A stretch of 64,000 nt of DNA, taken from Candidatus Poriferihabitaceae bacterium (GTDB lineage: Bacteria; Pseudomonadota; Gammaproteobacteria; Arenicellales; Poriferihabitantaceae). Within the stretch, counting starts at the first letter, position 1; each line of letters begins with the position of its first letter. This document shows, in pieces, positions 27,613 to 41,799 of this stretch. The notes below the pieces were generated by a model that had not been told where the DNA came from, did not search any database, and was given only the letters and a program-made list of their open reading frames with translations. The position numbers and the translations under genes are program-made. The stretch covers positions 303,180 through 367,179 of the forward strand of contig OZ244914.1 of NCBI GenBank assembly GCA_965221795.1, given 5' to 3'.

Positions 27613-28302
27613 ATGATGGAAGTGCTCCACTTTGACACTCACCGCTTTGTCAAGAACCTGACCGAAAGCGGCTTTACCGAACTTCAGGCCGAAGCCCTGG
27701 CTGAGGCCCAGATCACGTTTCTCAACGAAAACCTGGCCACCAAGGCCAGCATTGACACCCTGCGCCTGGAAACCCAGGCCGATATCGCTCGACTGGAAGC
27801 CAGTGTCGAATCCCTGCGCCTGGAAACCAAGGCCGATATTGCTCGAGTGGAAGCCAGTGTCGAATCCCTGCGCCTGGAAACCAAGGCCGATATTGCTCGA
27901 GTGGAGGCCAGTGTCGAATCCCTGCGCCTGGAAACCAAGGCCGATATCGTTCGACTTGAGGGCGGCATTGAAACCCTGAGCCAGGAAACCAAGGCCGATA
28001 TCGCTCGAGTGGAAGCCAGTGTCGAATCCCTGCGCCAGGAAACCCAGGCCGATATCGCTCGAGTGGAGGCCAGTGTCGAATCCCTGCGCCAGGAAACCAA
28101 GGCCGATATCGCTCGAGTGGAGGCCAGTGTCGAATCCCTGCGCCAAGAAACCAAGGCCAGCATTGACACCCTGCGTCAGGAAACCCAGGCCAGTATTCTG
28201 TCGGCCAAGTACAGCCTCATGAAATGGATGACCGGAACGATGTTCGCCATGACCGGGCTGTTTGCCGCGATCGTCAAGCTGCTCCCTGGCATCGCTTCGT
28301 GA
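27613..28302 (+). CDS. DUF1640-like coiled-coil membrane-anchored protein with expanded internal repeats
   Basis: The N-terminus FDTHRFVKNLTESGFTELQAEALAEA is DUF1640-like. It is followed by repeated 18-aa units and a C-terminal TM segment (WMTGTMFAMTGLFAAIV). Confidence 0.6.
   Translation: MMEVLHFDTHRFVKNLTESGFTELQAEALAEAQITFLNENLATKASIDTLRLETQADIARLEASVESLRLETKADIARVEASVESLRLETKADIARVEASVESLRLETKADIVRLEGGIETLSQETKADIARVEASVESLRQETQADIARVEASVESLRQETKADIARVEASVESLRQETKASIDTLRQETQASILSAKYSLMKWMTGTMFAMTGLFAAIVKLLPGIAS
27751..28191 (+). repeat. tandem repeat, 54-bp period, about 8 copies, in frame within the DUF1640-like gene
   Basis: The unit gaaaccaaggccgatattgctcgagtggaagccagtgtcgaatccctgcgcctg (ETKADIARVEASVESLRL) recurs head-to-tail with few substitutions. 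Confidence 0.9.
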
Positions 28303-29025: not shown

Positions 29026-32000
29026 GCTGCGGATTGCGGCCGTTTCTCGATTTGCTACACTCCCAAGTAAATTGACCGAACAACCCGCCTTGCTGCGGAT
29101 TGCGGCCGTTTCTCGATTTGCTACACTAGCACGATTACCGGCCTGCAATTGAGCTTGGCTGCGGATTGCGGCCGTTTCTCGATTTGCTACACTGCCGGAT
29201 CGATCGCACAGATTGATCATGGCGCTGCGGATTGCGGCCGTTTCTCGATTTGCTACACTTATGATACTCACCTAAATCGTCGCTAGGACGCTGCGGATTG
29301 CGGCCGTTTCTCGATTTGCTACACTCTGCGGGCAACGATAACCAGCGAAAGACGGGCTGCGGATTGCGGCCGTTTCTCGATTTGCTACACTCTTTGCCCG
29401 TGCCGATGCCGCCTTGATCCAGCTGCGGATTGCGGCCGTTTCTCGATTTGCTACACTGCGCTTGCGCAGGATACTCTTCGGAGCGGCGCTGCGGATTGCG
29501 GCCGTTTCTCGATTTGCTACACTTCCGAGCGATGCGCCAATTGAGACGCAAATGCTGCGGATTGCGGCCGTTTCTCGATTTGCTACACTTTGCCGCTTAG
29601 ACTGCCGGTACGCAATATCGCTGCGGATTGCGGCCGTTTCTCGATTTGCTACACTGTGGATACGTATTCGTTCTACGTCCCCATGGCTGCGGATTGCGGC
29701 CGTTTCTCGATTTGCTACACTGATACGCTGCATGATGTCATGTTCGCGACCGCTGCGGATTGCGGCCGTTTCTCGATTTGCTACACTTTTCTGCACCAGT
29801 TTGATCCTCGGAGCAGAGCTGCGGATTGCGGCCGTTTCTCGATTTGCTACACTCTCTCGCCAAGAGTCGCTACAATGGTCCACGCTGCGGATTGCGGCCG
29901 TTTCTCGATTTGCTACACTCGACCTCTGAAAGTTGACGCCTAGAAGTCGGCTGCGGATTGCGGCCGTTTCTCGATTTGCTACACTGCACAGAACTAGGTG
30001 GAATTGTGTCGACGAGCTGCGGATTGCGGCCGTTTCTCGATTTGCTACACTCTTCGGTTACATCACCTGATAACCCTCCTCGCTGCGGATTGCGGCCGTT
30101 TCTCGATTTGCTACACTCCCATTGATTGCGCTAGTCAGTTCAGAGGCGCTGCGGATTGCGGCCGTTTCTCGATTTGCTACACTGCGATCTAGGATGTCCT
30201 TAGTTATATACTTGCTGCGGATTGCGGCCGTTTCTCGATTTGCTACACTCGGTTTTACCGCGAATATGGCCGCTATCCCGCTGCGGATTGCGGCCGTTTC
30301 TCGATTTGCTACACTCGGTTTTACCGCGAATATGGCCGCTATCCCGCTGCGGATTGCGGCCGTTTCTCGATTTGCTACACTAAACTGGACAAAAAGCAAC
30401 CTCCGAAATCCGCTGCGGATTGCGGCCGTTTCTCGATTTGCTACACTCACGAACTGGAGACTGCGATTCGGGAGTCCGCTGCGGATTGCGGCCGTTTCTC
30501 GATTTGCTACACTTCTGGTTCTAACGAGGTCGATCAGGTCCCCGCTGCGGATTGCGGCCGTTTCTCGATTTGCTACACTTTCTTGCACCTCGATATATTT
30601 TGCTTCGCCGCTGCGGATTGCGGCCGTTTCTCGATTTGCTACACTAGATAATGACCTTATTACTTCACAGCTCAAGCTGCGGATTGCGGCCGTTTCTCGA
30701 TTTGCTACACTCGGCTTGCTCACGATTGGATAAAGACTCGTGCTGCGGATTGCGGCCGTTTCTCGATTTGCTACACTATGGGCTGCCGCTGTTGAGTACA
30801 TCCTGAAGCTGCGGATTGCGGCCGTTTCTCGATTTGCTACACTAATGTGCATGCCTCCACCGTACATGTGGATGCTGCGGATTGCGGCCGTTTCTCGATT
30901 TGCTACACTTCAGGCAAAAGCGAATCTCCAGCAGCGCATGCTGCGGATTGCGGCCGTTTCTCGATTTGCTACACTCTTACTGCGATTGAGTTGAGTTCGA
31001 GGAATGCTGCGGATTGCGGCCGTTTCTCGATTTGCTACACTCAACTCGGACAGGGTCAGATGGTCCTGACTGCTGCGGATTGCGGCCGTTTCTCGATTTG
31101 CTACACTAGTTCTGTGGCGCCAACCGAAAGGGAGATAGCTGCGGATTGCGGCCGTTTCTCGATTTGCTACACTTCTCGTCGGACACGACATGAGGAGGGT
31201 AACGCTGCGGATTGCGGCCGTTTCTCGATTTGCTACACTTTAGGCAGCACGACGCCAATCAAAGCAGACGCTGCGGATTGCGGCCGTTTCTCGATTTGCT
31301 ACACTGTCCGTACCAGTGTAGTCAATTCCTTCTTCGCTGCGGATTGCGGCCGTTTCTCGATTTGCTACACTTGAGGATTCTCATGTTATCGCTGTTCAAT
31401 AGCTGCGGATTGCGGCCGTTTCTCGATTTGCTACACTGAATACTAGAATACATCGCATCATAGTCGGGCTGCGGATTGCGGCCGTTTCTCGATTTGCTAC
31501 ACTACTACACCTTGAGGCTTGACCCTCGCGTCGGCTGCGGATTGCGGCCGTTTCTCGATTTGCTACACTTATCAACTGGTCTCCCTCACCACTCTTTCCG
31601 CTGCGGATTGCGGCCGTTTCTCGATTTGCTACACTGTGTGACGTGCGGAGATAAAGCCGACTGCAGCTGCGGATTGCGGCCGTTTCTCGATTTGCTACAC
31701 TAGCTCGGGCGGTGGGCATCGAGGGGCGACCGCTGCGGATTGCGGCCGTTTCTCGATTTGCTACACTATGAGTGTAAAGCTCGACAATTTCAGACATGCT
31801 GCGGATTGCGGCCGTTTCTCGATTTGCTACACTGTTAAGTAGCTCCGTCAAAGCGCCTTCGGCGCTGCGGATTGCGGCCGTTTCTCGATTTGCTACACTA
31901 TATGAGTATATATATATATATGAGTCCGAGCTGCGGATTGCGGCCGTTTCTCGATTTGCTACACTTTGCAGAACAGGAAGGTCTGCGGTTGGACTGCTGC

Positions 32001-32624
32001 GGATTGCGGCCGTTTCTCGATTTGCTACACTCTCGCGAAGCATGGGGATCCAACGTTCGAAGCTGCGGATTGCGGCCGTTTCTCGATTTGCTACACTTTT
32101 CGCCTCCTGTAGCGTCTTTATATCCTCGCTGCGGATTGCGGCCGTTTCTCGATTTGCTACACTGTGCTCCAGATTTGCCATGCTCCAAGACAGGCTGCGG
32201 ATTGCGGCCGTTTCTCGATTTGCTACACTCCCCCCTTAACGGAGCCCCGGACTCCCCGGGCTGCGGATTGCGGCCGTTTCTCGATTTGCTACACTAATGG
32301 GTTGACCGCGAAAGTCGACGTTGAAGCTGCGGATTGCGGCCGTTTCTCGATTTGCTACACTTTCCATCTGCTGCTTTCTTTCGATTGTCCTGCTGCGGAT
32401 TGCGGCCGTTTCTCGATTTGCTACACTGGACAAGGCGCAAGGACTTATTAGTGTCCAGCTGCGGATTGCGGCCGTTTCTCGATTTGCTACACTCTCCTGC
32501 ACTTCAATGTATTTCGCCTCTCCGCTGCGGATTGCGGCCGTTTCTCGATTTGCTACACTTTAAGTAGCTCCGTGAGAGCACCTTCCGCGCTGCGGATTGC
32601 GGCCGTTTCTCGATTTGCTACACT
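29026..32624 (+). CRISPR. CRISPR array, part 1: 55 copies of 36-bp repeat GCTGCGGATTGCGGCCGTTTCTCGATTTGCTACACT with 30-nt spacers (one of 29 nt)
   Basis: The period is 66 bp from 29026, and all inspected repeats are identical. The last repeat is 32589-32624. The + strand is the predicted crRNA sense (see the tracrRNA and promoter findings). Confidence 0.97.
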
Positions 32625-32671
32625 AAATAACAAAAGGGAATTATATCGAATAGTAACATTGGCCCTTTGAT

Positions 32672-32839
32672 CTAGGGCTTTTTGGACTTCTGAAAAAAGG
32701 CCCGTTGCAGCGTAGCCAGGTCCGCTCCGGGCATCTCATATTCCCGTTCCAGTTCCGCTTTGCTGGGCTGGTAGTGGACGTCAAAGGGATCAGGTGTGGG
32801 TCGGGTCTTTCTGTGTGATGTATTGGACCTTGTTTTCAT
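32672..32839 (-). CDS. small hypothetical protein (about 55 aa) inside the IS
   Basis: ORF 32672..32896. The internal ATG (MKTRSNTSH) is preceded by GAGGA. No family recognised. Confidence 0.25.
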   Translation of the reverse strand: MKTRSNTSHRKTRPTPDPFDVHYQPSKAELEREYEMPGADLATLQRAFFQKSKKP

Positions 32840-33024
32840 AGCAGATCCTCGGAAAGTCGGGGAATTATCTGTAATAATAACCCAACCACACAACAATACA
32901 GCACATTCATGACAGGTACAACGAAATCTGCTAGTCTGAAGAGAGGCAGACCGCAGACCGCAATTTAAGTGTCGGCCCGAACTGGGCTAACCAGACCATC
33001 TGGACAGGGGACAATCTCCCCATC

Positions 33025-34203
33025 ATGCGGGGGATGAATTCGGAGTCTGTGGACCTGATCTATCTGGATCCCCCGTTCAACTCCAAAGCCGATTATGCGG
33101 CTCCGATCGGCAGCCGGGCTGCCGGTGCCGAATTCAAGGATACCTGGACCTTGCAGGACGTGGATATCGCCTGGCTGGACCTGATCGAAAACAAACACCC
33201 GAAATGATGGCGGGTCATACAGGCTGCCATGACCAACAGCGATAAGTCCTATTTGATTTACATGGCAGTACGGTTGTTGGAAATGCAGCGGCTGCTGAAA
33301 CCAACAGGAAGCATTTATCTTCATTGTGATCCGACGATGAGCCACTATTTGAAACTGGTTATGGATGCCATCTTTGGACGGGAAAATTTCAAGAATGATA
33401 TTATTTGGAATCGCTCAGGAGGATTCAAACGGAAAACGGCTCGCCTTTTTCCCACCAAAAACGACAATATTCTCTTTTATGCACTGGACAGTAAAATCCA
33501 TACATTTTCTACCCAATACAGACCTCACAGGCCGGAATACATAAAGCGGTTTAAGGCCGACGCTTCTGGAAGGCTGTTTCGTTCTGATGTCAATCCAACT
33601 GGCGGCGGTCGCCGTACCATTTATCTGGATGAAACTTTAGGAGATATTGTCGACTCTGTTTGGATAGATATTCCTCCTGCAAATCCGGCGGCAAAAGAAC
33701 GTGTGGGTTATCCAACACAGAAACCGATTGCTTTGTTGCGACGCATCCTGAAAGCTTCCTGTCCCGAAAACGGGGTTGTGCTGGATCCTTTTTGTGGATG
33801 TGCTACCACGTGCGTTGCAGCGGAAGAATTAAGCAGGCAATGGGTGGGAATTGATATCAGTTCCAAAGCCTATGATCTGGTCAAGGATCGAATGGACCGG
33901 GAAATCGGCTTCTCTACCTATACTTGCCCCCATCGCACGGATATTCCCCAGAGAACGGATATCCAGCCATTAAAGCGGTATAACCACCCGGACAACCGGA
34001 AATACCTGTACGGCGAACAGGGAGGGATCTGTAACGGCTGCCGGGAACATTTTCTGATCCAGAATTTTACGGTAGATCACATCATTTCTCGCAAGCAAGG
34101 AGGGACCGATCATCTGGACAATCTGCAATTGCTCTGTGCCCGATGCAACTCGGTCAAGGGAGACCGAGGGCAGGAGTATCTTATAACAAGACTGGCTGCG
34201 TGA
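33025..34203 (+). pseudogene. beta-class N6A/N4C DNA methyltransferase fused to a C-terminal HNH nuclease domain, interrupted by an in-frame TGA
   Basis: Motif IV DLIYLDPPFNS lies upstream of motif I (VLDPFCGCATT). The HNH motif is CNGC...DHIISRKQGGTDHLDNLQLLCARCNSVKG. ORFs 33025..33207 and 33229..34203 are in the same frame and are separated by TGA at 33205-33207. Homology (ANQTIWTGDNLPIM) extends upstream of 33025 without a canonical start. Confidence 0.75.
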
Positions 34204-34211
34204 CCTGTCGA

Positions 34212-35156
34212 CTACGCCTGGATCAAATCCACATAACGCAACCGCTTCCCCTCCATTCGCCTGACCATCCAGTCCATCTGGTCCATGGTGTCCAGTTCGC
34301 GGTCATTGAACCGCCCGGAAAATTCATGGACATAACGGTTCAAGTGCTTCTCGCTCATATGGTGGTAAGTGCCATGGTAGCCCCGCTTCAGTAACGCCCA
34401 AAACGACTCAATGCCGTTGGTGTGGGCTTGGTCGTTCACCCACTCACTAACCGAATGTTTCACCGTTTCATGGGGATTCGGGAGCCCTTGGTAGCCCTTC
34501 CATTCGTCGCTGTAAATCGTGGTCGTGTATTCGGTGACCTCGCCCAGGAATTCGTGCAGGCAGGTTCTGCTGGCCGAAGGAATGACCTTGGCTTGGATGG
34601 TGTTGGTTTCCCGATCCTTGGCTCCGACCACCGTCGCTTTCCCCACGGCTCCCCGACCCGCATGTAGTTTCTTGTGGGCATGCTTGTTGATCTCCTTGCC
34701 GCCGATGTAAGTCTCATCTACTTCTACCGGCCCCGGGAACTGACCCGTTTCGGATTGGAAAACATCCCGGAGCCGATGCAGCATAAACCAGGCCGCTTTC
34801 TGTCCAATGCCCAATTCCCGGTGCAGTTTCATCGAACTGATGCCTTTCAGGTTCGTAGTGAACAGGTAAATGCCCACGGCCCAATGACGATACTTGATCT
34901 TGGAGCCTTCCATCACCGAGCCTTTCTTTACGCTGAACATCGGCTTGCCCTTACACTCCCGGCAACGATGGGTCATGGTGGGATGCGTAATATCACTTTG
35001 CACATTGTGGGTTCCACAATGAGGGCAGACCGGACCATCCGGCCACCGCCATTCCTCAATCCATTTGCGGGCGCTTTCCTCGGTGCCAAACATTTCCGCA
35101 ATTTCCAGAAGCGTTAATCCTTTCCTTTTGTACTTACCGGGTGCTGACTGGGCCAT
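34212..35156 (-). CDS. IS1595-family (ISXO2-like) DDE transposase
   Basis: 314 aa with an N-terminal zinc ribbon (CPHCG...CRECK) and a DDE_Tnp_IS1595-type core (VEVDETYIGGK...IYSDEWKGY...HTNGIESFWALLKRG). Confidence 0.9.
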   Translation of the reverse strand: MAQSAPGKYKRKGLTLLEIAEMFGTEESARKWIEEWRWPDGPVCPHCGTHNVQSDITHPTMTHRCRECKGKPMFSVKKGSVMEGSKIKYRHWAVGIYLFTTNLKGISSMKLHRELGIGQKAAWFMLHRLRDVFQSETGQFPGPVEVDETYIGGKEINKHAHKKLHAGRGAVGKATVVGAKDRETNTIQAKVIPSASRTCLHEFLGEVTEYTTTIYSDEWKGYQGLPNPHETVKHSVSEWVNDQAHTNGIESFWALLKRGYHGTYHHMSEKHLNRYVHEFSGRFNDRELDTMDQMDWMVRRMEGKRLRYVDLIQA

Positions 35157-35269
35157 GATTCTGTCTCGGTTACGATTTACTGAATAGTAACATTATGGTC
35201 AATTTGTGTCAACTGAAAATGTTACTTTTCGATATAATTCCCTAACAAAAAAATAATCGTATTGGGCGG

Positions 35270-36955
35270 GCTGCGGATTGCGGCCGTTTCTCGATTTGCT
35301 ACACTGACACGGAGAACTGTGTCACGCCAGTATTTGCTGCGGATTGCGGCCGTTTCTCGATTTGCTACACTTCCAGCGGGTGCGATGGCGCCAGCCAAAG
35401 GGCTGCGGATTGCGGCCGTTTCTCGATTTGCTACACTTCCATCAAGGATATCGAGAGCATCCATACGCTGCGGATTGCGGCCGTTTCTCGATTTGCTACA
35501 CTACGCTTACGAAGGATGCTCCGCGAAGCGGCGCTGCGGATTGCGGCCGTTTCTCGATTTGCTACACTCCCAAACAGTATCTGCCTTCTCAAGCCGAAGC
35601 TGCGGATTGCGGCCGTTTCTCGATTTGCTACACTACGCTTACGAAGGATGCTCCGCGAAGCGGCGCTGCGGATTGCGGCCGTTTCTCGATTTGCTACACT
35701 AGCTTGGCCCTTATTAGCCAGTGCCTGTAAGCTGCGGATTGCGGCCGTTTCTCGATTTGCTACACTTCCATACTAAGCGACTCCTAAAGAAGATAAGCTG
35801 CGGATTGCGGCCGTTTCTCGATTTGCTACACTGAGAAGGGCCATCCATGGCGGCCATCTCGCGGCTGCGGATTGCGGCCGTTTCTCGATTTGCTACACTG
35901 AAGTAAAATCTCGACAAATCATGAATTTGGCTGCGGATTGCGGCCGTTTCTCGATTTGCTACACTACCGCCGCCTAAGTACTCACGATTGGCAGAGCTGC
36001 GGATTGCGGCCGTTTCTCGATTTGCTACACTTTTTGAGGTGATTAGCCCGAACACCGTAAAGCTGCGGATTGCGGCCGTTTCTCGATTTGCTACACTAGT
36101 AATATGTGGACGGATTGTCTCGCCCGGGCTGCGGATTGCGGCCGTTTCTCGATTTGCTACACTCGCAAGCGTTTGTTTAAGTCTCGCGCAGACGCTGCGG
36201 ATTGCGGCCGTTTCTCGATTTGCTACACTCTCACGAAGCATGGGAATCCATCTCTCGAAGCTGCGGATTGCGGCCGTTTCTCGATTTGCTACACTAGCAG
36301 CCAAGGCGCCTTGCGTTTGCATAGAGCTGCGGATTGCGGCCGTTTCTCGATTTGCTACACTCACCTCGTGTTGCTCCTGCTGCTGTTTCATGCTGCGGAT
36401 TGCGGCCGTTTCTCGATTTGCTACACTACCAAAGAGTGTCCTGTGTCAAGAGAGACCGCTGCGGATTGCGGCCGTTTCTCGATTTGCTACACTCTCACGC
36501 AACATCGGAATCCAGCGCTCGAAGCTGCGGATTGCGGCCGTTTCTCGATTTGCTACACTCCGTCCTTAGTCGTGGCTAGACTCGCTCAGGCTGCGGATTG
36601 CGGCCGTTTCTCGATTTGCTACACTACAGGTTAGTCAACAAAACGCTCGTTCTGCGCTGCGGATTGCGGCCGTTTCTCGATTTGCTACACTCCATCAGGC
36701 GACTCCAAGTGAGGATAAAGGGCTGCGGATTGCGGCCGTTTCTCGATTTGCTACACTTTGCTCTGTAACGTGGGGTGAAAGCGCAGAGCTGCGGATTGCG
36801 GCCGTTTCTCGATTTGCTACACTTACCACCAAGGGCAGTGCCGATGCCGAGAAGCTGCGGATTGCGGCCGTTTCTCGATTTGCTACACTGGAATTCTGAC
36901 TGATCGCCCACGCCTCATCGCTGCGGATTGCGGCCGTTTCTCGATTTGCTACACT
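35270..36955 (+). CRISPR. CRISPR array, part 2: 26 copies of the same 36-bp repeat with 30-nt spacers
   Basis: The 66-bp period is exact from 35270 to the last repeat at 36920-36955. The repeat is identical to that of part 1. Confidence 0.97.
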
Positions 36956-37005: not shown

Positions 37006-37341
37006 TCAAAAAAGTTCCAGTTGGGCGGGCGGGTTCGGCAATGTCTGTCGTTTTTTTCCGACATGGATCTCTATCCGACCGAACTGTTTGTCGGTGATTG
37101 TCAGGAATCGGACTTCCCCTGCGAAAGGTACCCGGTGACCCATCCTTGCAGTGTGAACCTTGGCGTTTTCAATAGATGCGCAGTGCCGTATGTAAACGGA
37201 ATACTGCATCATCGTAAAACCGTCTTTTATTAGCTCTTTCCGAAATCTGGCATAGGCCTTACGGGCTGTTGGCGTGTCTGTGGGAAGGTCGAACATTGCA
37301 ATTACCCACATCGAACGCCAACCCCATGGGATTGCTTTCAC
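37006..37341 (-). CDS. cas2: CRISPR-associated endoribonuclease Cas2
   Basis: 111 aa with a Cas2-type translation (IAMFDLPTDTPTARKAYARFRKELIKDGFTMMQYSVYIRHC). It lies directly downstream of cas1. Confidence 0.9.
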   Translation of the reverse strand: MKAIPWGWRSMWVIAMFDLPTDTPTARKAYARFRKELIKDGFTMMQYSVYIRHCASIENAKVHTARMGHRVPFAGEVRFLTITDKQFGRIEIHVGKKRQTLPNPPAQLELF

Positions 37342-37367: not shown

Positions 37368-38303
37368 TCAGCCTGCGTCTGTGATATCAGACTGCCCGGG
37401 TTCCACCGGCAGACCCTCGGGTAAGGAAAGCTTCTGTTCTCCGCCAGTCAGAACTTGGCAAAGGGAAACCGCACTGGTATGCAAGGCTAGCAGCAATGGT
37501 TCCTTACGGCCTCCAACAAGAATGGTTTCGTTGAGTAATGCGAGGAGTTCAGCGCGATTTTTCCGTATCGATAGATCGGGTACTGGCTCGCCTTCATCCT
37601 CTGTCAACTGCCGGACACGCCAGTCAACGTATGGCCGATACGGCTCCAACAGATCGTCCGCCAGACAGAAAGGGTTGCTCCGGTGGCGGTGATGTACACC
37701 CAGAGATGGGATCAGTCCCACTGCGACCACGGCCCGGGCGATTGCAGCACGAACAACAGCATAGCCGTAATTCAGTAGTGCATTCACGCCTCCAGCACTC
37801 CGGTCCCGACGGAAATCCTTGCCGAACAGGCGAGGCCAGTATCTCTGTGCAGCCTGTGCCTCAAGATTTTCCGGATCGCCAGAACGTACTCGGCGAGCCA
37901 TGGCGGTGAGGCCTCCATGACTATCGGTGAAATGCGACAGTACGGCAGCCTGCTGCCTGATCTTGGCTTGTACGATCTCCTGCCATGCACGTTTTGAGGT
38001 CGGCTTACTGGCACCGACCTGCGCACGATGCCGTTCCGTCTGAATATGATGCGCATCAAGAGGCAACATCATTCCGACGGGTAAATGGTCGTGGCCGGTG
38101 ACCAGCACGGTTGCACCGGCCTCCAAAAGCGAAAGAAAGACAGACTGCGTGTAGGTCGCCTGGATGTCGTCGACAATCACTACACCCAAGTCTTCGATCG
38201 GGAGCGTCGCCTTTGGCAGGTCGAGCCGCTCGATCACAAGCTGTGAATTCGCAACGGAAAGGCGAGTTCCGGGAGTTGAGAATTCCACGGTCTTGCGGAT
38301 CAT
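37368..38303 (-). CDS. cas1: CRISPR-associated endonuclease Cas1 (type II)
   Basis: 311 aa with a Cas1-type translation (NALLNYGYAVVRAAIARAVVAVGLIPSLGVHHRHRSNPFCLADDLLEPYRP). Confidence 0.92.
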   Translation of the reverse strand: MIRKTVEFSTPGTRLSVANSQLVIERLDLPKATLPIEDLGVVIVDDIQATYTQSVFLSLLEAGATVLVTGHDHLPVGMMLPLDAHHIQTERHRAQVGASKPTSKRAWQEIVQAKIRQQAAVLSHFTDSHGGLTAMARRVRSGDPENLEAQAAQRYWPRLFGKDFRRDRSAGGVNALLNYGYAVVRAAIARAVVAVGLIPSLGVHHRHRSNPFCLADDLLEPYRPYVDWRVRQLTEDEGEPVPDLSIRKNRAELLALLNETILVGGRKEPLLLALHTSAVSLCQVLTGGEQKLSLPEGLPVEPGQSDITDAG

Positions 38304-38315
38304 GATGGTATGGTT

Positions 38316-41300
38316 TCAGTCGTTTGCCGGACGGACCCGGCCAGCTGGGTCGACGGAAACCTTCCTTCCGCCGCCTTTGACGATTGCAGTTGCTTTAGGA
38401 CGAAACTCGGAAGTTCCGGTCGCATCATCATGATCAACCATAACAACTTGGCCCGATGTCCAGACACCTTTGACAATTCGAATTTTCTCTTCACCATTCT
38501 TGGCAAATTGCAACGAATCACCGGGAGATAACGACATGACAAATTTCGCACCATCTCCACGGTCACGGCAAACTACCGGTTGCCGTCGTCCAATACGTCG
38601 GGAGGCTTCCAGCAAGCTCACCACCTCATAATCGACGGTGTTATCCGGCAAACTATAGATGGCGATATGGTGGTTGTTGCCCAAGTCGGCATGACCCGTA
38701 GAAACGGATGCCATCAGATCCATTTGCCGTTTAATACGCAGGCGAACCTTCCGGATTTCCGGACCCTTTCGACCTCGCTTCGGATAGGGTGGGAAAGCCT
38801 TCTTCGGCTCTCCACCGTGCTGGTCAACCCAGCCTTTGATGATATCCCGTACCTTTTGGTCGGGCCACAGGTCCCTGTTCTTTTCCTGCAGGGTGTCCTT
38901 GCTCAGCTCCTCGACATTCTTGCGTGTTACGAAATATCGGTAAGTTGGCCGGCCCTTGGAAGCATCGTCCTCACCTGTATTGCCGTAAACTGTCTCTTTA
39001 TGCAGGGGGCCGGAAACCTTTTTTCGTACGCGATGGGATACAACAATGGTCATGACTTCCTTTTCGGCATCGCGTCGAATCGTCCCCCACGGTAGTTCAA
39101 GGCGTGGGGCTATGGAGTGGAAGTTATCCTCGTCCTGCCAGTAGCGTGAGAGTTGCTGGGTCATCCTAGGGTGACAGCACGCGACCGTCAGGGCATCAAT
39201 TGCGTGGTGCCGGTGGTCAGCACGGTTTTTTTCACCATTATCAGCCAGTATGTTGCTGAGTCCCCATAACCGGCGGAGATGTGCGGTGACCCGTCCCGAA
39301 ACAGCATGAACCTTGACAGAGGACTCTGGACCAACGTCTGGCCAAAGTTTCTTCAGATAGGTAACAGCCTCACGGGCCGCATAGCCTGTGTCGTTCAACT
39401 GTCGAGCGGCAAAATCTTCCGGAATGGACATCGCCAGGAATCTCCTGATCTTGCCATGGGACATACCAATCCCCCCACTTTTCGGTGCCTTCATTCCATA
39501 GAGTCTGGTAACCAGAGCCTCCCATCCTGCGGAATCGTCGCGAAAGAATTCATATGGAATCCGATTGCTCTTTTGGAGGTTCACATCCTTGCGGCATAGA
39601 GTCTTGTTCTTGAAACTATCATCAAGGGAGCGCGAGCGCGGCCAGATATGCTCCACTTCGAATTTTCCGGATTTGAACAAATCATCAAATGAAATGGAAT
39701 CTCCTGTGTACGGACAGAAATATCGACTCTCTTCCCACAGCATCCACTTCTCAACATCTGCCCGAGAAGGCGTAGGAATACCTTTTTCCTGAAGCTTCTC
39801 GCGTGCTGCCTTCCGGCGACGTTCCTGCCGCTTGATTCCAGCTGCCCTTTCCTCACGTTGACGTTTCGAATTACCCACATCACGCGCCATCTCGACGCGA
39901 ATCAGGTCTGGCTTTCCGAACATGTCGATCAGATTGTTAACTACCTTCCGCAGTTCATTGCGAGTGCGTGCTACCGTAGGGTTCCGCAGCTTCTTGACAT
40001 GCTCACACTCTTCCCGGTCTGCGGGACTGGGAAGGCGATCAAACACCTCGCCGGTAGGTTGCTCACGACCCGGGAAAGTGTCGGTTCGCCATGGTTCCCA
40101 GGCGGGACCGTTGATGATTTCACCAAATCGGACGCCAGCTTCAAGATGCGGCAGCATCGCCTGCAGCGCATCAATGGAATAGGGCTCCCACCCGGGTGAG
40201 AATTTCAGGATCTCGATTGCAGATGCCTGATCATCGGATAGATCAAATTCCGCGGCCAAACGGCGTACGGTTTCCGACCTGCGGGACTGACGCTCGGATG
40301 CAGGGAGAATAGTCACGCGCTGGCCGCCGACTTCATCGTAGTCCGCCTGCCTGATCCTGTCCGGCAGTGCATCCCTGATTTCCTGTTTGCATGGATGATC
40401 TTGCCAAGCATCCCCGAAGATTCCCGCCAGCTTTGATTCAATAGCATTGCCGAGCAGATTTCTCTCGCCGCCCTCTTCCAGATTGAATTTCAGTGCTCTC
40501 TCCTCACCAGCTTGACCACGCGCCCTGTATAGAGGTGCAAGCGCTCTCTGAACGCCTTTCCACGTCATTGATGCTTGGGTTTGAAGTCTTGCAAGTATGG
40601 CCGCTCTCTCTTCTTCATCCAGATGCCGCTGGTTTCTGCCGGTGATCGAGAGATTGTTGAGCTTTTCCAGCATACGCCTTTGCTGTGACAGCCAGGACCC
40701 CTTCGGGCAGAGACGCGCATCGGGGACAAATGGACATGTGCCAAGGGTGTTCAATCGCCAGAAAACGGGGCGCTGGAAGAAGATCGCATCCCGGATGGAA
40801 GAGCAGAATGATTCCGGCAGAAGCGGTGACCAAACGGAATCGAATTCATGCGCGACGATGTAACGTGTGGCATGTTCGCCTCTCTTGCGTTCATGCGAAC
40901 CACGCCCGGCCAGCCAGGCACCAAGGGTCTTTTCTTCACGCTTGATTTCCTTGATTGTTTTTTCGCGTGCAGAAGAGGCCTTCTTATCGTCATCACCGTC
41001 ATCAGAGGACTCGGCTCCATCCACAATCTCGTCGAGATCACGACCCTTGAAATGTCGACGCTGTGCTAGATGGTAGATGGCCCGGCCAATTTCATGCGGA
41101 GACAGGGGATACCCCTCAAATCCTCGCCTCCGCAGATCATAGGGATCCCACTTCATCACTTCGTTCCATTCCGTGGACCCTCGTTGCGGAAGGAATCCGG
41201 CCTGGAACAGTTGTTCACCGAGAATACGGCGACGCTCCCGGCGGCGGCGCAATTGACGTCGCCGCAGGCGTGCCTGCCGTCGTTCCTGATTTAATGGAAC

Positions 41301-41438
41301 ACCCCTAGGGTCCCGGGCTTCGGGAAAAATGCGGACACCAAGGCGATGGATTTTTCCTGTAGCTCTCTTCGGGTCGTGTTCTATTACGGCAAATCCGATT
41401 GATGTCGTTCCGATATCGAATCCGAAAGTCAGTGGCAT
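38316..41438 (-). CDS. cas9: type II-C Cas9 (about 1,040 aa)
   Basis: It has RuvC-I FGFDIGTTSIGFAV, an Arg-rich bridge helix RQARLRRRQLRRRRERRRIL, RuvC-II IRVEMARD, HNH FEVEHIWPRS...NKTLC...NLQKSNRIPYEF and RuvC-III DHRHHAIDAL. No csn2 or cas4 is present, hence II-C. The start is set at MPLTFGF (41438). The ORF-track extension to 41534 covers the predicted tracrRNA anti-repeat and is rejected. Confidence 0.93.
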   Translation of the reverse strand: MPLTFGFDIGTTSIGFAVIEHDPKRATGKIHRLGVRIFPEARDPRGVPLNQERRQARLRRRQLRRRRERRRILGEQLFQAGFLPQRGSTEWNEVMKWDPYDLRRRGFEGYPLSPHEIGRAIYHLAQRRHFKGRDLDEIVDGAESSDDGDDDKKASSAREKTIKEIKREEKTLGAWLAGRGSHERKRGEHATRYIVAHEFDSVWSPLLPESFCSSIRDAIFFQRPVFWRLNTLGTCPFVPDARLCPKGSWLSQQRRMLEKLNNLSITGRNQRHLDEEERAAILARLQTQASMTWKGVQRALAPLYRARGQAGEERALKFNLEEGGERNLLGNAIESKLAGIFGDAWQDHPCKQEIRDALPDRIRQADYDEVGGQRVTILPASERQSRRSETVRRLAAEFDLSDDQASAIEILKFSPGWEPYSIDALQAMLPHLEAGVRFGEIINGPAWEPWRTDTFPGREQPTGEVFDRLPSPADREECEHVKKLRNPTVARTRNELRKVVNNLIDMFGKPDLIRVEMARDVGNSKRQREERAAGIKRQERRRKAAREKLQEKGIPTPSRADVEKWMLWEESRYFCPYTGDSISFDDLFKSGKFEVEHIWPRSRSLDDSFKNKTLCRKDVNLQKSNRIPYEFFRDDSAGWEALVTRLYGMKAPKSGGIGMSHGKIRRFLAMSIPEDFAARQLNDTGYAAREAVTYLKKLWPDVGPESSVKVHAVSGRVTAHLRRLWGLSNILADNGEKNRADHRHHAIDALTVACCHPRMTQQLSRYWQDEDNFHSIAPRLELPWGTIRRDAEKEVMTIVVSHRVRKKVSGPLHKETVYGNTGEDDASKGRPTYRYFVTRKNVEELSKDTLQEKNRDLWPDQKVRDIIKGWVDQHGGEPKKAFPPYPKRGRKGPEIRKVRLRIKRQMDLMASVSTGHADLGNNHHIAIYSLPDNTVDYEVVSLLEASRRIGRRQPVVCRDRGDGAKFVMSLSPGDSLQFAKNGEEKIRIVKGVWTSGQVVMVDHDDATGTSEFRPKATAIVKGGGRKVSVDPAGRVRPAND

Positions 41439-41458
41439 GCGTGATCTTCTGTTTCTTG

Positions 41459-41486
41459 TTGCTTTATACGAATCATATGCTAATAT
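41459..41486 (+). promoter_or_regulatory. sigma70-type promoter for the predicted tracrRNA
   Basis: The promoter is TTGCTT (41459-41464), a 16-nt spacer and TAATAT (41481-41486), with an extended -10 TG at 41478-41479 (TGCTAATAT). Confidence 0.5.
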
Positions 41487-41493
41487 CGTTTCC

Positions 41494-41620
41494 ATAGCAA
41501 ATCGAGAAGCGGTCGATTTCCTTTTCGCAAGCAAATTGACCCTTTGTGCGGGCTCGGTGTCCCAAGGTCATCCACCGGTTTTCTAAAGCCGCCGTTTCCA
41601 TTCGGAGGCTTTATTGCTTG
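41494..41620 (+). ncRNA. predicted tracrRNA (divergent from cas9)
   Basis: The anti-repeat at 41495-41532 (TAGCAAATCGAGAAGCGGTCGATTTCCTTTTCGCAAGC) is complementary to the +-strand repeat: 21 consecutive pairs including 2 G:U, then a bulged continuation to repeat position 1. Downstream lie hairpins CGGTG-13 nt-CACCG followed by GTTTTCT, and AAAGCCGCCG-8 nt-CGGAGGCTTT followed by ATT. The ends are approximate. Confidence 0.6.
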
Positions 41621-41799
41621 TGTGCTGGAAATCAGTTTGCAAGCTGAATGGTTACTGATTGGCAAGCGGTGTGTACACCACAGGACTTCGGCTGGCGTCT
41701 GGTGTAAGAATGCCAGAGTGACCGCGCATCGGTTTCCGGGGCCGGATTACCCAGCGATGGCTTCGGACGCAGTCTTGAGATAGCCGGGGGCAGGCCGGA

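Follow-up and report, generated by a model that had tools for sequence, protein, structure and literature searches.

Organization of the CRISPR-Cas Locus

The window analysed here, a stretch of 64,000 nucleotides (GC content 56%) from a Candidatus Poriferihabitaceae bacterium (contig OZ244914.1), carries a complete type II-C CRISPR-Cas locus, in which a predicted tracrRNA gene is followed by cas9-cas1-cas2 (- strand) and by an array of 81 repeats. The cas9 gene (38316-41438, - strand) encodes a type II-C protein of 1040 aa (NCBIfam profile TIGR01865, E = 1e-172); cas1 (37368-38303, - strand) is of type II, NMENI subtype (TIGR03639, E = 1e-75), and cas2 (37006-37341, - strand) matches TIGR01573 (E = 7e-17). 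Neither csn2 nor cas4 was found among the genes neighbouring cas9-cas1-cas2 in the window, and it is this operon of cas9-cas1-cas2 without csn2 or cas4 that places the locus in type II-C. The ORFs flanking the cas operon are housekeeping genes (a dehydrogenase, an aminotransferase, a DUF1015 protein and a zinc-ribbon protein).

The CRISPR Array and Its Insertion Element

The repeats lie in two blocks on the + strand, one proximal to cas2 (35270-36955; 26 identical 36-nt repeats, GCUGCGGAUUGCGGCCGUUUCUCGAUUUGCUACACU) and one distal (29026-32624; 55 identical repeats), both of them parts of what was originally one array. The 81 repeats are all identical, 36 nt long and read GCTGCGGATTGCGGCCGTTTCTCGATTTGCTACACT on the + strand, with no degenerate terminal repeat, and each of them ends in TGCTACACT, an extended -10-like motif and putative promoter element. 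The array was split by an insertion of about 2.6 kb of the IS1595 family inside a spacer (window positions 32625-35269). The element itself (32637-35243) has terminal inverted repeats, GGGAATTATATCGAA(T/A)AGTAACATT, at 32637-32661 and 35219-35243 and is flanked by an 8-bp target duplication, TAACAAAA (32629-32636 and 35244-35251); removing it in silico restores a 30-nt spacer. If crRNAs come from promoters embedded in the repeats, the insertion would silence neither half of the array.

Besides its transposase (34212-35156, - strand), the element carries a gene for an N6/N4 methyltransferase-HNH protein (33024-34203, + strand) with an in-frame TGA at 33205-33207. The region of the DPPF motif (DLIYLDPPFNS) lies upstream of this TGA, in frame with a 324-aa ORF that starts at 33229; the interrupted gene could be a pseudogene, a recoding site or the product of a sequencing error.

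Two spacers occur in duplicate, CGGTTTTACCGCGAATATGGCCGCTATCCC in adjacent positions (30250-30279 and 30316-30345) and ACGCTTACGAAGGATGCTCCGCGAAGCGGC with one spacer between the copies (35503-35532 and 35635-35664). A protospacer search with the spacers, as a polarity test by way of the PAM side, gave no phage match, and among plasmids only three weak partial matches (82-90% identity). About 0.9 kb before the end of the distal block there is also a 54-nt tandem repeat (27758-28196; 7.4 copies, 91% identity), which is not CRISPR and, 54 being a multiple of three, may encode an 18-aa protein repeat.

An Anti-Repeat Next to cas9

Upstream of cas9, the + strand segment TAGCAAATCGAGAAGCGGTCG (41495-41515) is identical at 19 of 21 positions to the reverse complement of repeat positions 12-32, and so can pair with repeat positions 32-12 through 19 Watson-Crick and two G:U pairs, just as a sequence-only reading of this DNA had described for the upper stem of an anti-repeat. 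Both differences are transitions, which give G:U pairs if both RNAs are read from the + strand and A-C mismatches otherwise. Outside the arrays this segment is the top local match to the repeat (score 32, against 23 for the runner-up) and the sole match with three mismatches or fewer, where 100 dinucleotide shuffles led us to expect none. The RNAcofold duplex with the repeat reaches -45.6 kcal/mol in the + strand model, compared with -34.6 kcal/mol for the opposite strand and -18.5 +/- 2.6 kcal/mol for shuffled partners, and a scan of both strands placed the strongest duplex, at that same -45.6 kcal/mol, on the anti-repeat; unrelated sites in the window reach -40.1 kcal/mol, however, and we relied on the sequence matches and the comparative data because duplex energy discriminates poorly in a window this rich in GC. 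The sequence-only reading had also named a better anti-repeat elsewhere as a finding that would count against it, and within the window none turned up by local match, mismatch scan or duplex energy.

The upper stem is followed by an internal loop or bulge, AUUUCCUUUU (41516-41525, + strand), which varies in length between loci, is mostly unpaired in RNAcofold and is missing from many homologs (alignment columns 23-34 are gapped). A UCC within this segment had been proposed to pair with repeat positions 8-6; since the segment is absent from many homologs, such pairing is not conserved, a correction that leaves the main result untouched. Beyond the loop, the lower stem CGCAAGC (41526-41532, + strand) pairs with repeat positions 6-1 (GCUGCG) in RNAcofold, with one bulged A, and takes the form CGC(A)AGC or CGUAGC in all homologs aligned. 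The bulged A had been recognized correctly, but the extent of the stem had not: the pairing was given as GCAAGC with repeat positions 5-1, whereas both RNAcofold and the homologs extend it to CGCAAGC with positions 1-6. On the other side of the upper stem, A41494 mismatches repeat position C33, a place at which most homologs carry G. The segment thus has the extended complementarity to the repeat of its own locus by which we tested for a tracrRNA (a 21-bp upper and a 6-bp lower stem), and it is encoded next to cas9, starting 56 nt from the cas9 start codon and divergent from it.

Predicted Promoter, Terminator, and Transcript

The predicted transcript, delimited by the covariance model and by blastn homologs (both described below), runs over 41494-41620 on the + strand and would be about 120-127 nt long. 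We infer that it starts at 41492-41494, 6-8 nt past the -10 element, and that its 3' end falls in the U-rich tail at 41612-41620. Ahead of the anti-repeat stand a -35-like hexamer, TTGCTT (41459-41464, + strand), and, 16 nt after it, an extended -10 element, TGCTAATAT (41478-41486, + strand; hexamer TAATAT at 41481-41486), the arrangement that the sequence-only reading had picked out. Among 46 distinct homologs, TTG(C/A) is kept at a fixed distance from the anti-repeat and the consensus at the -10 position is GCTAnCAT, so that the hexamers are conserved at fixed spacing while the sequence between and after them varies. A generic promoter scan of the window did not report this + strand promoter, since TTGCTT matches TTGACA at only three of six positions; the case for the -35 element is its conservation across homologs. 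Between the extended -10 element, TGCTAATAT here and GCTAnCAT in homologs, and the 3' end of the repeat, TGCTACACT, there is a likeness that may reflect a shared type of promoter or a trace of common origin.

At the other end, AAAGCCGCCG (41585-41594) can pair with CGGAGGCUUU (41603-41612) across an 8-nt loop to form a putative intrinsic terminator (41585-41619, + strand) that continues into AUUGCUU. In the DNA, this corresponds to AAAGCCGCCG pairing with CGGAGGCTTT (41603-41612), followed by ATTGCTTG, and a terminator scan reported it on the + strand. It has two weaknesses, an interrupted U-tract (UUUAUUGCUU) and one G-A mismatch in the stem, but the hairpin is recovered in MFE folds and all nine of its counted pairs are changed on both sides across homologs. 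That a last hairpin followed by AUU closes the RNA had been claimed beforehand, and the terminator scan and the covariation agree with it. The RNA thus has a transcription unit of its own, with promoter and terminator, at the in silico level only.

Homologous Loci and Co-evolution with the Repeat

A profile search with one genome per species yielded 79 loci that encode relatives of the window Cas9. When these were searched by blastn with positions 41459-41640, a homolog was present in 49 of them, always ending about 50-60 nt upstream of cas9 and on the opposite strand; across these 49 loci the RNA element is 74-98% identical in DNA, as against 46-73% identity for the Cas9 proteins. Taking blastn and the covariance model together, a homologous element lies divergently upstream of cas9 in about 55 related loci. 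The homologs align in the order promoter hexamers, anti-repeat, variable loop, an invariant CGC(A)AGCAAA, a conserved core, and lastly a hairpin that leads into a U-rich tail.

The covariance model, R1, which was built on this alignment, has exactly one full-length hit in the window (41494-41622, + strand; 123.4 bits), its weak hits there being the CRISPR repeats themselves. With the same model the RNA is also recognized ahead of cas9 genes that are more distant (loci L036, L064, L039, L043, and L059), and it accompanies relatives of Cas9 whose identity falls to about 33-45%, in every case upstream of cas9 and divergent from it. In Rfam, neither at the gathering threshold nor with the cut-off relaxed to E = 10 does any family match the window RNA, apart from Phe_leader (E = 5.9), a match by chance; an Rfam match does not define the tracrRNA class, for which no single model spanning the different Cas9 clades is known.

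For 32 loci that have arrays, each anti-repeat was compared with the repeat of the same locus; the two change together (for example in L026, L028, L042, L020, and L037), which is the co-evolution across orthologous loci by which we also tested for a tracrRNA. The 22-bp stem contains 67 positions in these 32 loci that are not Watson-Crick pairs: read in the + strand model, 56 of them are G:U and 11 are mismatches, whereas in the opposite polarity four are G:U and 63 are mismatches. The G:U positions are spread over many columns of the repeat:anti-repeat stem, but since the loci are related by descent, neither these counts nor the counts of covarying cells given below represent independent events.

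The Cas9/tracrRNA relatives at 58-73% amino acid identity (loci L001-L050) are found in MAGs with widely differing labels: Alpha- and Gammaproteobacteria, Binatia, Entotheonella, Poriferihabitaceae, Rariloculaceae, Kiritimatiellia, and Candidatus Synechococcus spongiarum. Several of the labels denote sponge-associated lineages, and the distribution suggests that the Cas9/tracrRNA module spread horizontally across phyla in a shared habitat.

Predicted Structure of the Scaffold

Downstream of the anti-repeat, three helices can be drawn ahead of the terminator. Stem A (41538-41569, + strand) is nexus-like, with GACC at 41538-41541 opposite GGUC at 41566-41569, and it encloses stem B, an invariant GGG/CCC pairing (41550-41552 with 41561-41563, + strand); the MFE fold recovers both. 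Stem C (41555-41577, + strand), which pairs CGGUG (41555-41559) with CACCG (41573-41577), crosses stem A.

We counted pairs over 45 distinct sequences, with 500 shuffles and with partners slid by one column as controls. Pairing is seen in 89% of cells, and both partners have changed in 16 of 23 pairs; none of the 500 shuffles attains these values, and the pairing breaks down once the partners are displaced by one column. In stem A all four pairs have changes on both sides, while stem B, being invariant, is uninformative. In stem C, where 94.8% of cells are paired, double changes occur 20 times in one pair and 15 times in another. A conserved, structured 3' scaffold that tracks the Cas9 phylogeny is therefore present, with compensatory changes in stem A, stem C and the terminator.

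Stems A and C cross each other (41538 < 41555 < 41569 < 41577), and as each is backed by covariation, we predict a pseudoknotted scaffold. On the strength of the compensatory changes in 45 loci, we tentatively propose that Cas9 proteins of this clade may use a guide scaffold folded into a compact pseudoknot, not a series of hairpins, although we would put the chances of this at somewhat below even. Our literature search turned up no account of such a pseudoknot in the type II-C tracrRNA scaffold of the Parvibaculum-type clade, and our search for a solved structure of a close relative of this Cas9 found none; the nearest solved Cas9 structures (Nme1/Nme2 and Geo) match only at E ~1e-52 to ~1e-54, in the RuvC/HNH core.

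Alternative Readings of the Region Upstream of cas9

The mechanical cas9 ORF (38316-41534, - strand; TTG start, 1072 aa) exceeds the gene given above by 32 codons (41439-41534) and covers both the promoter and the anti-repeat of the predicted tracrRNA, and the region was also considered as coding sequence. The frame is indeed open from TTG 41534, and about ten public gene calls for Cas9 homologs have N-terminal extensions of 46-158 aa. The Cas9 profile, however, begins at ATG 41438, with position 2 of TIGR01865 aligned to residue 4 of the protein that starts there, and the offset of the RuvC-I motif from the N-terminus equals that of the window protein in 87 of the 109 database homologs in which the motif was located. 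Read upstream from the cas9 start, 22 of 30 homologous loci run into an in-frame stop within 40 codons, usually 7-16 codons away, and the conserved DNA upstream of cas9 falls in all three frames relative to the ATG, differing from locus to locus. The extended public calls are themselves antisense translations of the tracrRNA gene in two different frames (e.g., "...GSICYEKETDRFSICY..."). Judged by these comparisons, the true cas9 start is ATG 41438, with a protein that begins MPLTFGFDIGTTSIG, and we give virtually no credence to a genuine extension translated from TTG 41534. The sequence-only reading had called the extension an artefact and had granted that a real start at 41534 would undo its case; on the comparative evidence it was right about the artefact. 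False extensions of this kind are seen in the database proteins P0004, P0010, P0016, P0022, P0054, P0057, P0058, P0062, and P0075. Because the public calls share them, the masking of the tracrRNA gene by a false Cas9 N-terminus is both real and recurrent.

If the region is not coding, its repeat-like part might still be a decayed orphan repeat or array remnant, or the whole might be conserved as a promoter or 5' regulatory region of cas9, in either case without encoding a separate RNA. Degenerate repeats do often flank arrays, and with about 55 nt between the cas9 ATG and the predicted tracrRNA start, the promoter of cas9 has to be sought here or further out. But a remnant would not be expected to retain some 85 nt of covarying, structured tail including a terminator, nor promoter hexamers at fixed spacing, and its repeat-like portion would not change in step with the array repeat in such a way that pairing is preserved through G:U; we therefore consider this very unlikely. 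At least as improbable, in our view, is an RNA of the opposite polarity, in which a - strand anti-repeat would be part of a transcript running into cas9 (as a fused or processed 5' UTR) and the crRNAs would be - strand RNAs, co-directional with the cas operon. Complementarity alone favours neither strand, and the repeat read on the - strand (AGUGUAGC...) bears a superficial likeness to other type II repeats at their 5' ends; furthermore, the generic promoter scan flagged a sigma-70-like site on the - strand (TTGCTA, 17 nt, TATGAT at 41500-41472), the sole such site on that strand at 41439-41500, in which the anti-repeat itself serves as the -35. The TATGAT of this site is not conserved in homologs, however, and with the polarity reversed the two mismatches turn into A-C and C-A, the duplex is 11 kcal/mol weaker and G:U pairs account for only four of the 67 positions, as against 56. 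There is no terminator or conserved structure in the 56 nt between the anti-repeat and the cas9 ATG, a point that had been raised beforehand and that our analysis bears out, while a conserved scaffold and a terminator with a U-rich tail lie on the other side and on the other strand.

The orientation of the promoter and terminator agrees with the G:U asymmetry, which fixes the polarity, and the duplex energy points the same way; the original assignment of the RNA to the + strand, divergent from cas9, is thus upheld. The region at 41494-41620 (+ strand) is very probably the tracrRNA of this type II-C CRISPR-Cas9 locus, read away from cas9.

The distance from the cas9 ATG to the predicted tracrRNA start is about 55-56 nt, with the tracrRNA -35 element only 20 nt from the ATG. 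With a gap of only about 55 nt, the cas9 promoter must overlap the tracrRNA gene or lie beyond it, and a cas9 mRNA that started further upstream would be antisense to the tracrRNA. As a candidate for that promoter we considered the anti-repeat read on the - strand as an extended -10 element of the repeat type, and rejected it because the last base of the hexamer is not conserved among homologs.

Proposed Mode of Action

The tracrRNA would be transcribed from its own promoter, back-to-back with cas9, starting at the anti-repeat or 1-2 nt before it. Its 5' 39 nt (pairing over 41495-41532) would bind the repeat part of each + strand crRNA, which would in turn be synthesised from TGCTACACT, the extended -10-like motif in which every repeat ends, a mode of synthesis known from Neisseria and Campylobacter. 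The polarity of the tracrRNA and the G:U asymmetry assign the + strand as the crRNA sense, and since the 5' part of the tracrRNA pairs with + strand crRNAs, the array would be transcribed convergently with the cas operon. By analogy with established type II biology, RNase III would process the RNA duplex. The 3' scaffold (the nexus-like stem, GGG/CCC and the crossing helix) would bind Cas9, with a Rho-independent terminator closing the RNA, and the crRNA:tracrRNA duplex would then load into Cas9 and guide DNA cleavage, the target matching the spacer upstream of the repeat on the + strand and the PAM lying 3' of the protospacer.

Comparison with Known Systems

By sequence comparison, the window Cas9 falls in the Parvibaculum-type II-C clade, which makes the window tracrRNA an ordinary addition to a known class of RNA. 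The Cas9 of a Parvibaculum sp. MAG (L013) is 59% identical in amino acid sequence to that of the window, and the repeats of the two loci differ at two of 36 positions. The tracrRNAs of L013 and of locus L066 share 86% identity with the window RNA over 86 nt, and the covariance model described above gives them 116 bits; they also have the same position and orientation relative to cas9 as in the window. There are differences as well: the internal loop of the window RNA, AUUUCCUUUU, is longer than the Parvibaculum CUUUU, stem C is CGGUG/CACCG as opposed to CGGCA/UGCCG, and the window RNA has a shorter linker, followed by a different terminator hairpin. With about 40% divergence between the Cas9 proteins, the PAM of the window system may also differ from that of Parvibaculum.

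The published sgRNA of the Parvibaculum lavamentivorans enzyme (PlaCas9, also PlCas9) probably shares its repeat polarity and core scaffold with the window RNA. A full-text literature search for strings of the repeat and scaffold sequences did not find them, nor did they appear in the supplements of a Cas9 ortholog catalogue. PlaCas9 itself was validated in vitro, according to PMC6859307, which cites Ran et al. (2015). The window enzyme had been described as an uncharacterised II-C Cas9; the subtype is correct, but with a member of its clade validated in vitro, the enzyme is not entirely uncharacterised.

Convergent arrays and repeat-embedded promoters both have precedents in type II-C. The arrays of N. 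meningitidis and C. jejuni have been shown experimentally to be transcribed opposite to the cas operon (PMC3737331), and promoters embedded in the repeats occur in type II-C arrays (PMC5965381). N. meningitidis has the same minimal cas9-cas1-cas2 operon as the window, and its repeats carry promoter elements (PMC5965381), as does putatively the window repeat, with its -10-like end TGCTACACT; between the two tracrRNAs, however, we detected no similarity in sequence or by model, Rfam included. The guide RNA of CjCas9 forms a triple helix between its stem-loops (PMC7737000), so that the sgRNA of Campylobacter jejuni, like the window scaffold with its crossing helices, is not a simple series of hairpins; we offer this likeness of fold as a hint taken from the literature, and no sequence homology between the C. 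jejuni scaffold and the window RNA was shown. In the II-A system of Streptococcus pyogenes the tracrRNA likewise consists of anti-repeat, scaffold and terminator and is encoded upstream of cas9 on the opposite strand. The S. pyogenes locus differs from the window in being of the csn2 subtype and in its unrelated scaffold, and its array is co-directional with the cas genes (PMC3737331).

Implications

Taken as a whole, the biology of this locus is as expected for type II-C. What the analysis adds is a concrete and comparatively validated candidate guide RNA for an intact and heavily used II-C Cas9 of 1040 aa with 80 spacers. The sgRNA that we propose joins the spacer to GCUGCGGAUUGCGGCCGUUUCUCGAUUUGCUA, GAAA and window positions 41495-41615. 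With the strand of the crRNAs fixed, the PAM side of the protospacer is fixed as well. The locus also carries a warning for annotation, in that automatic ORF calling hides an RNA gene under a false N-terminus of Cas9. The only point that is possibly of specialist interest is the pair of crossing helices supported by covariation: if the pseudoknot is real and has not been described before, this Cas9 clade would have a distinct guide-RNA architecture, one that sgRNA design tools based on nested folds would misdraw.
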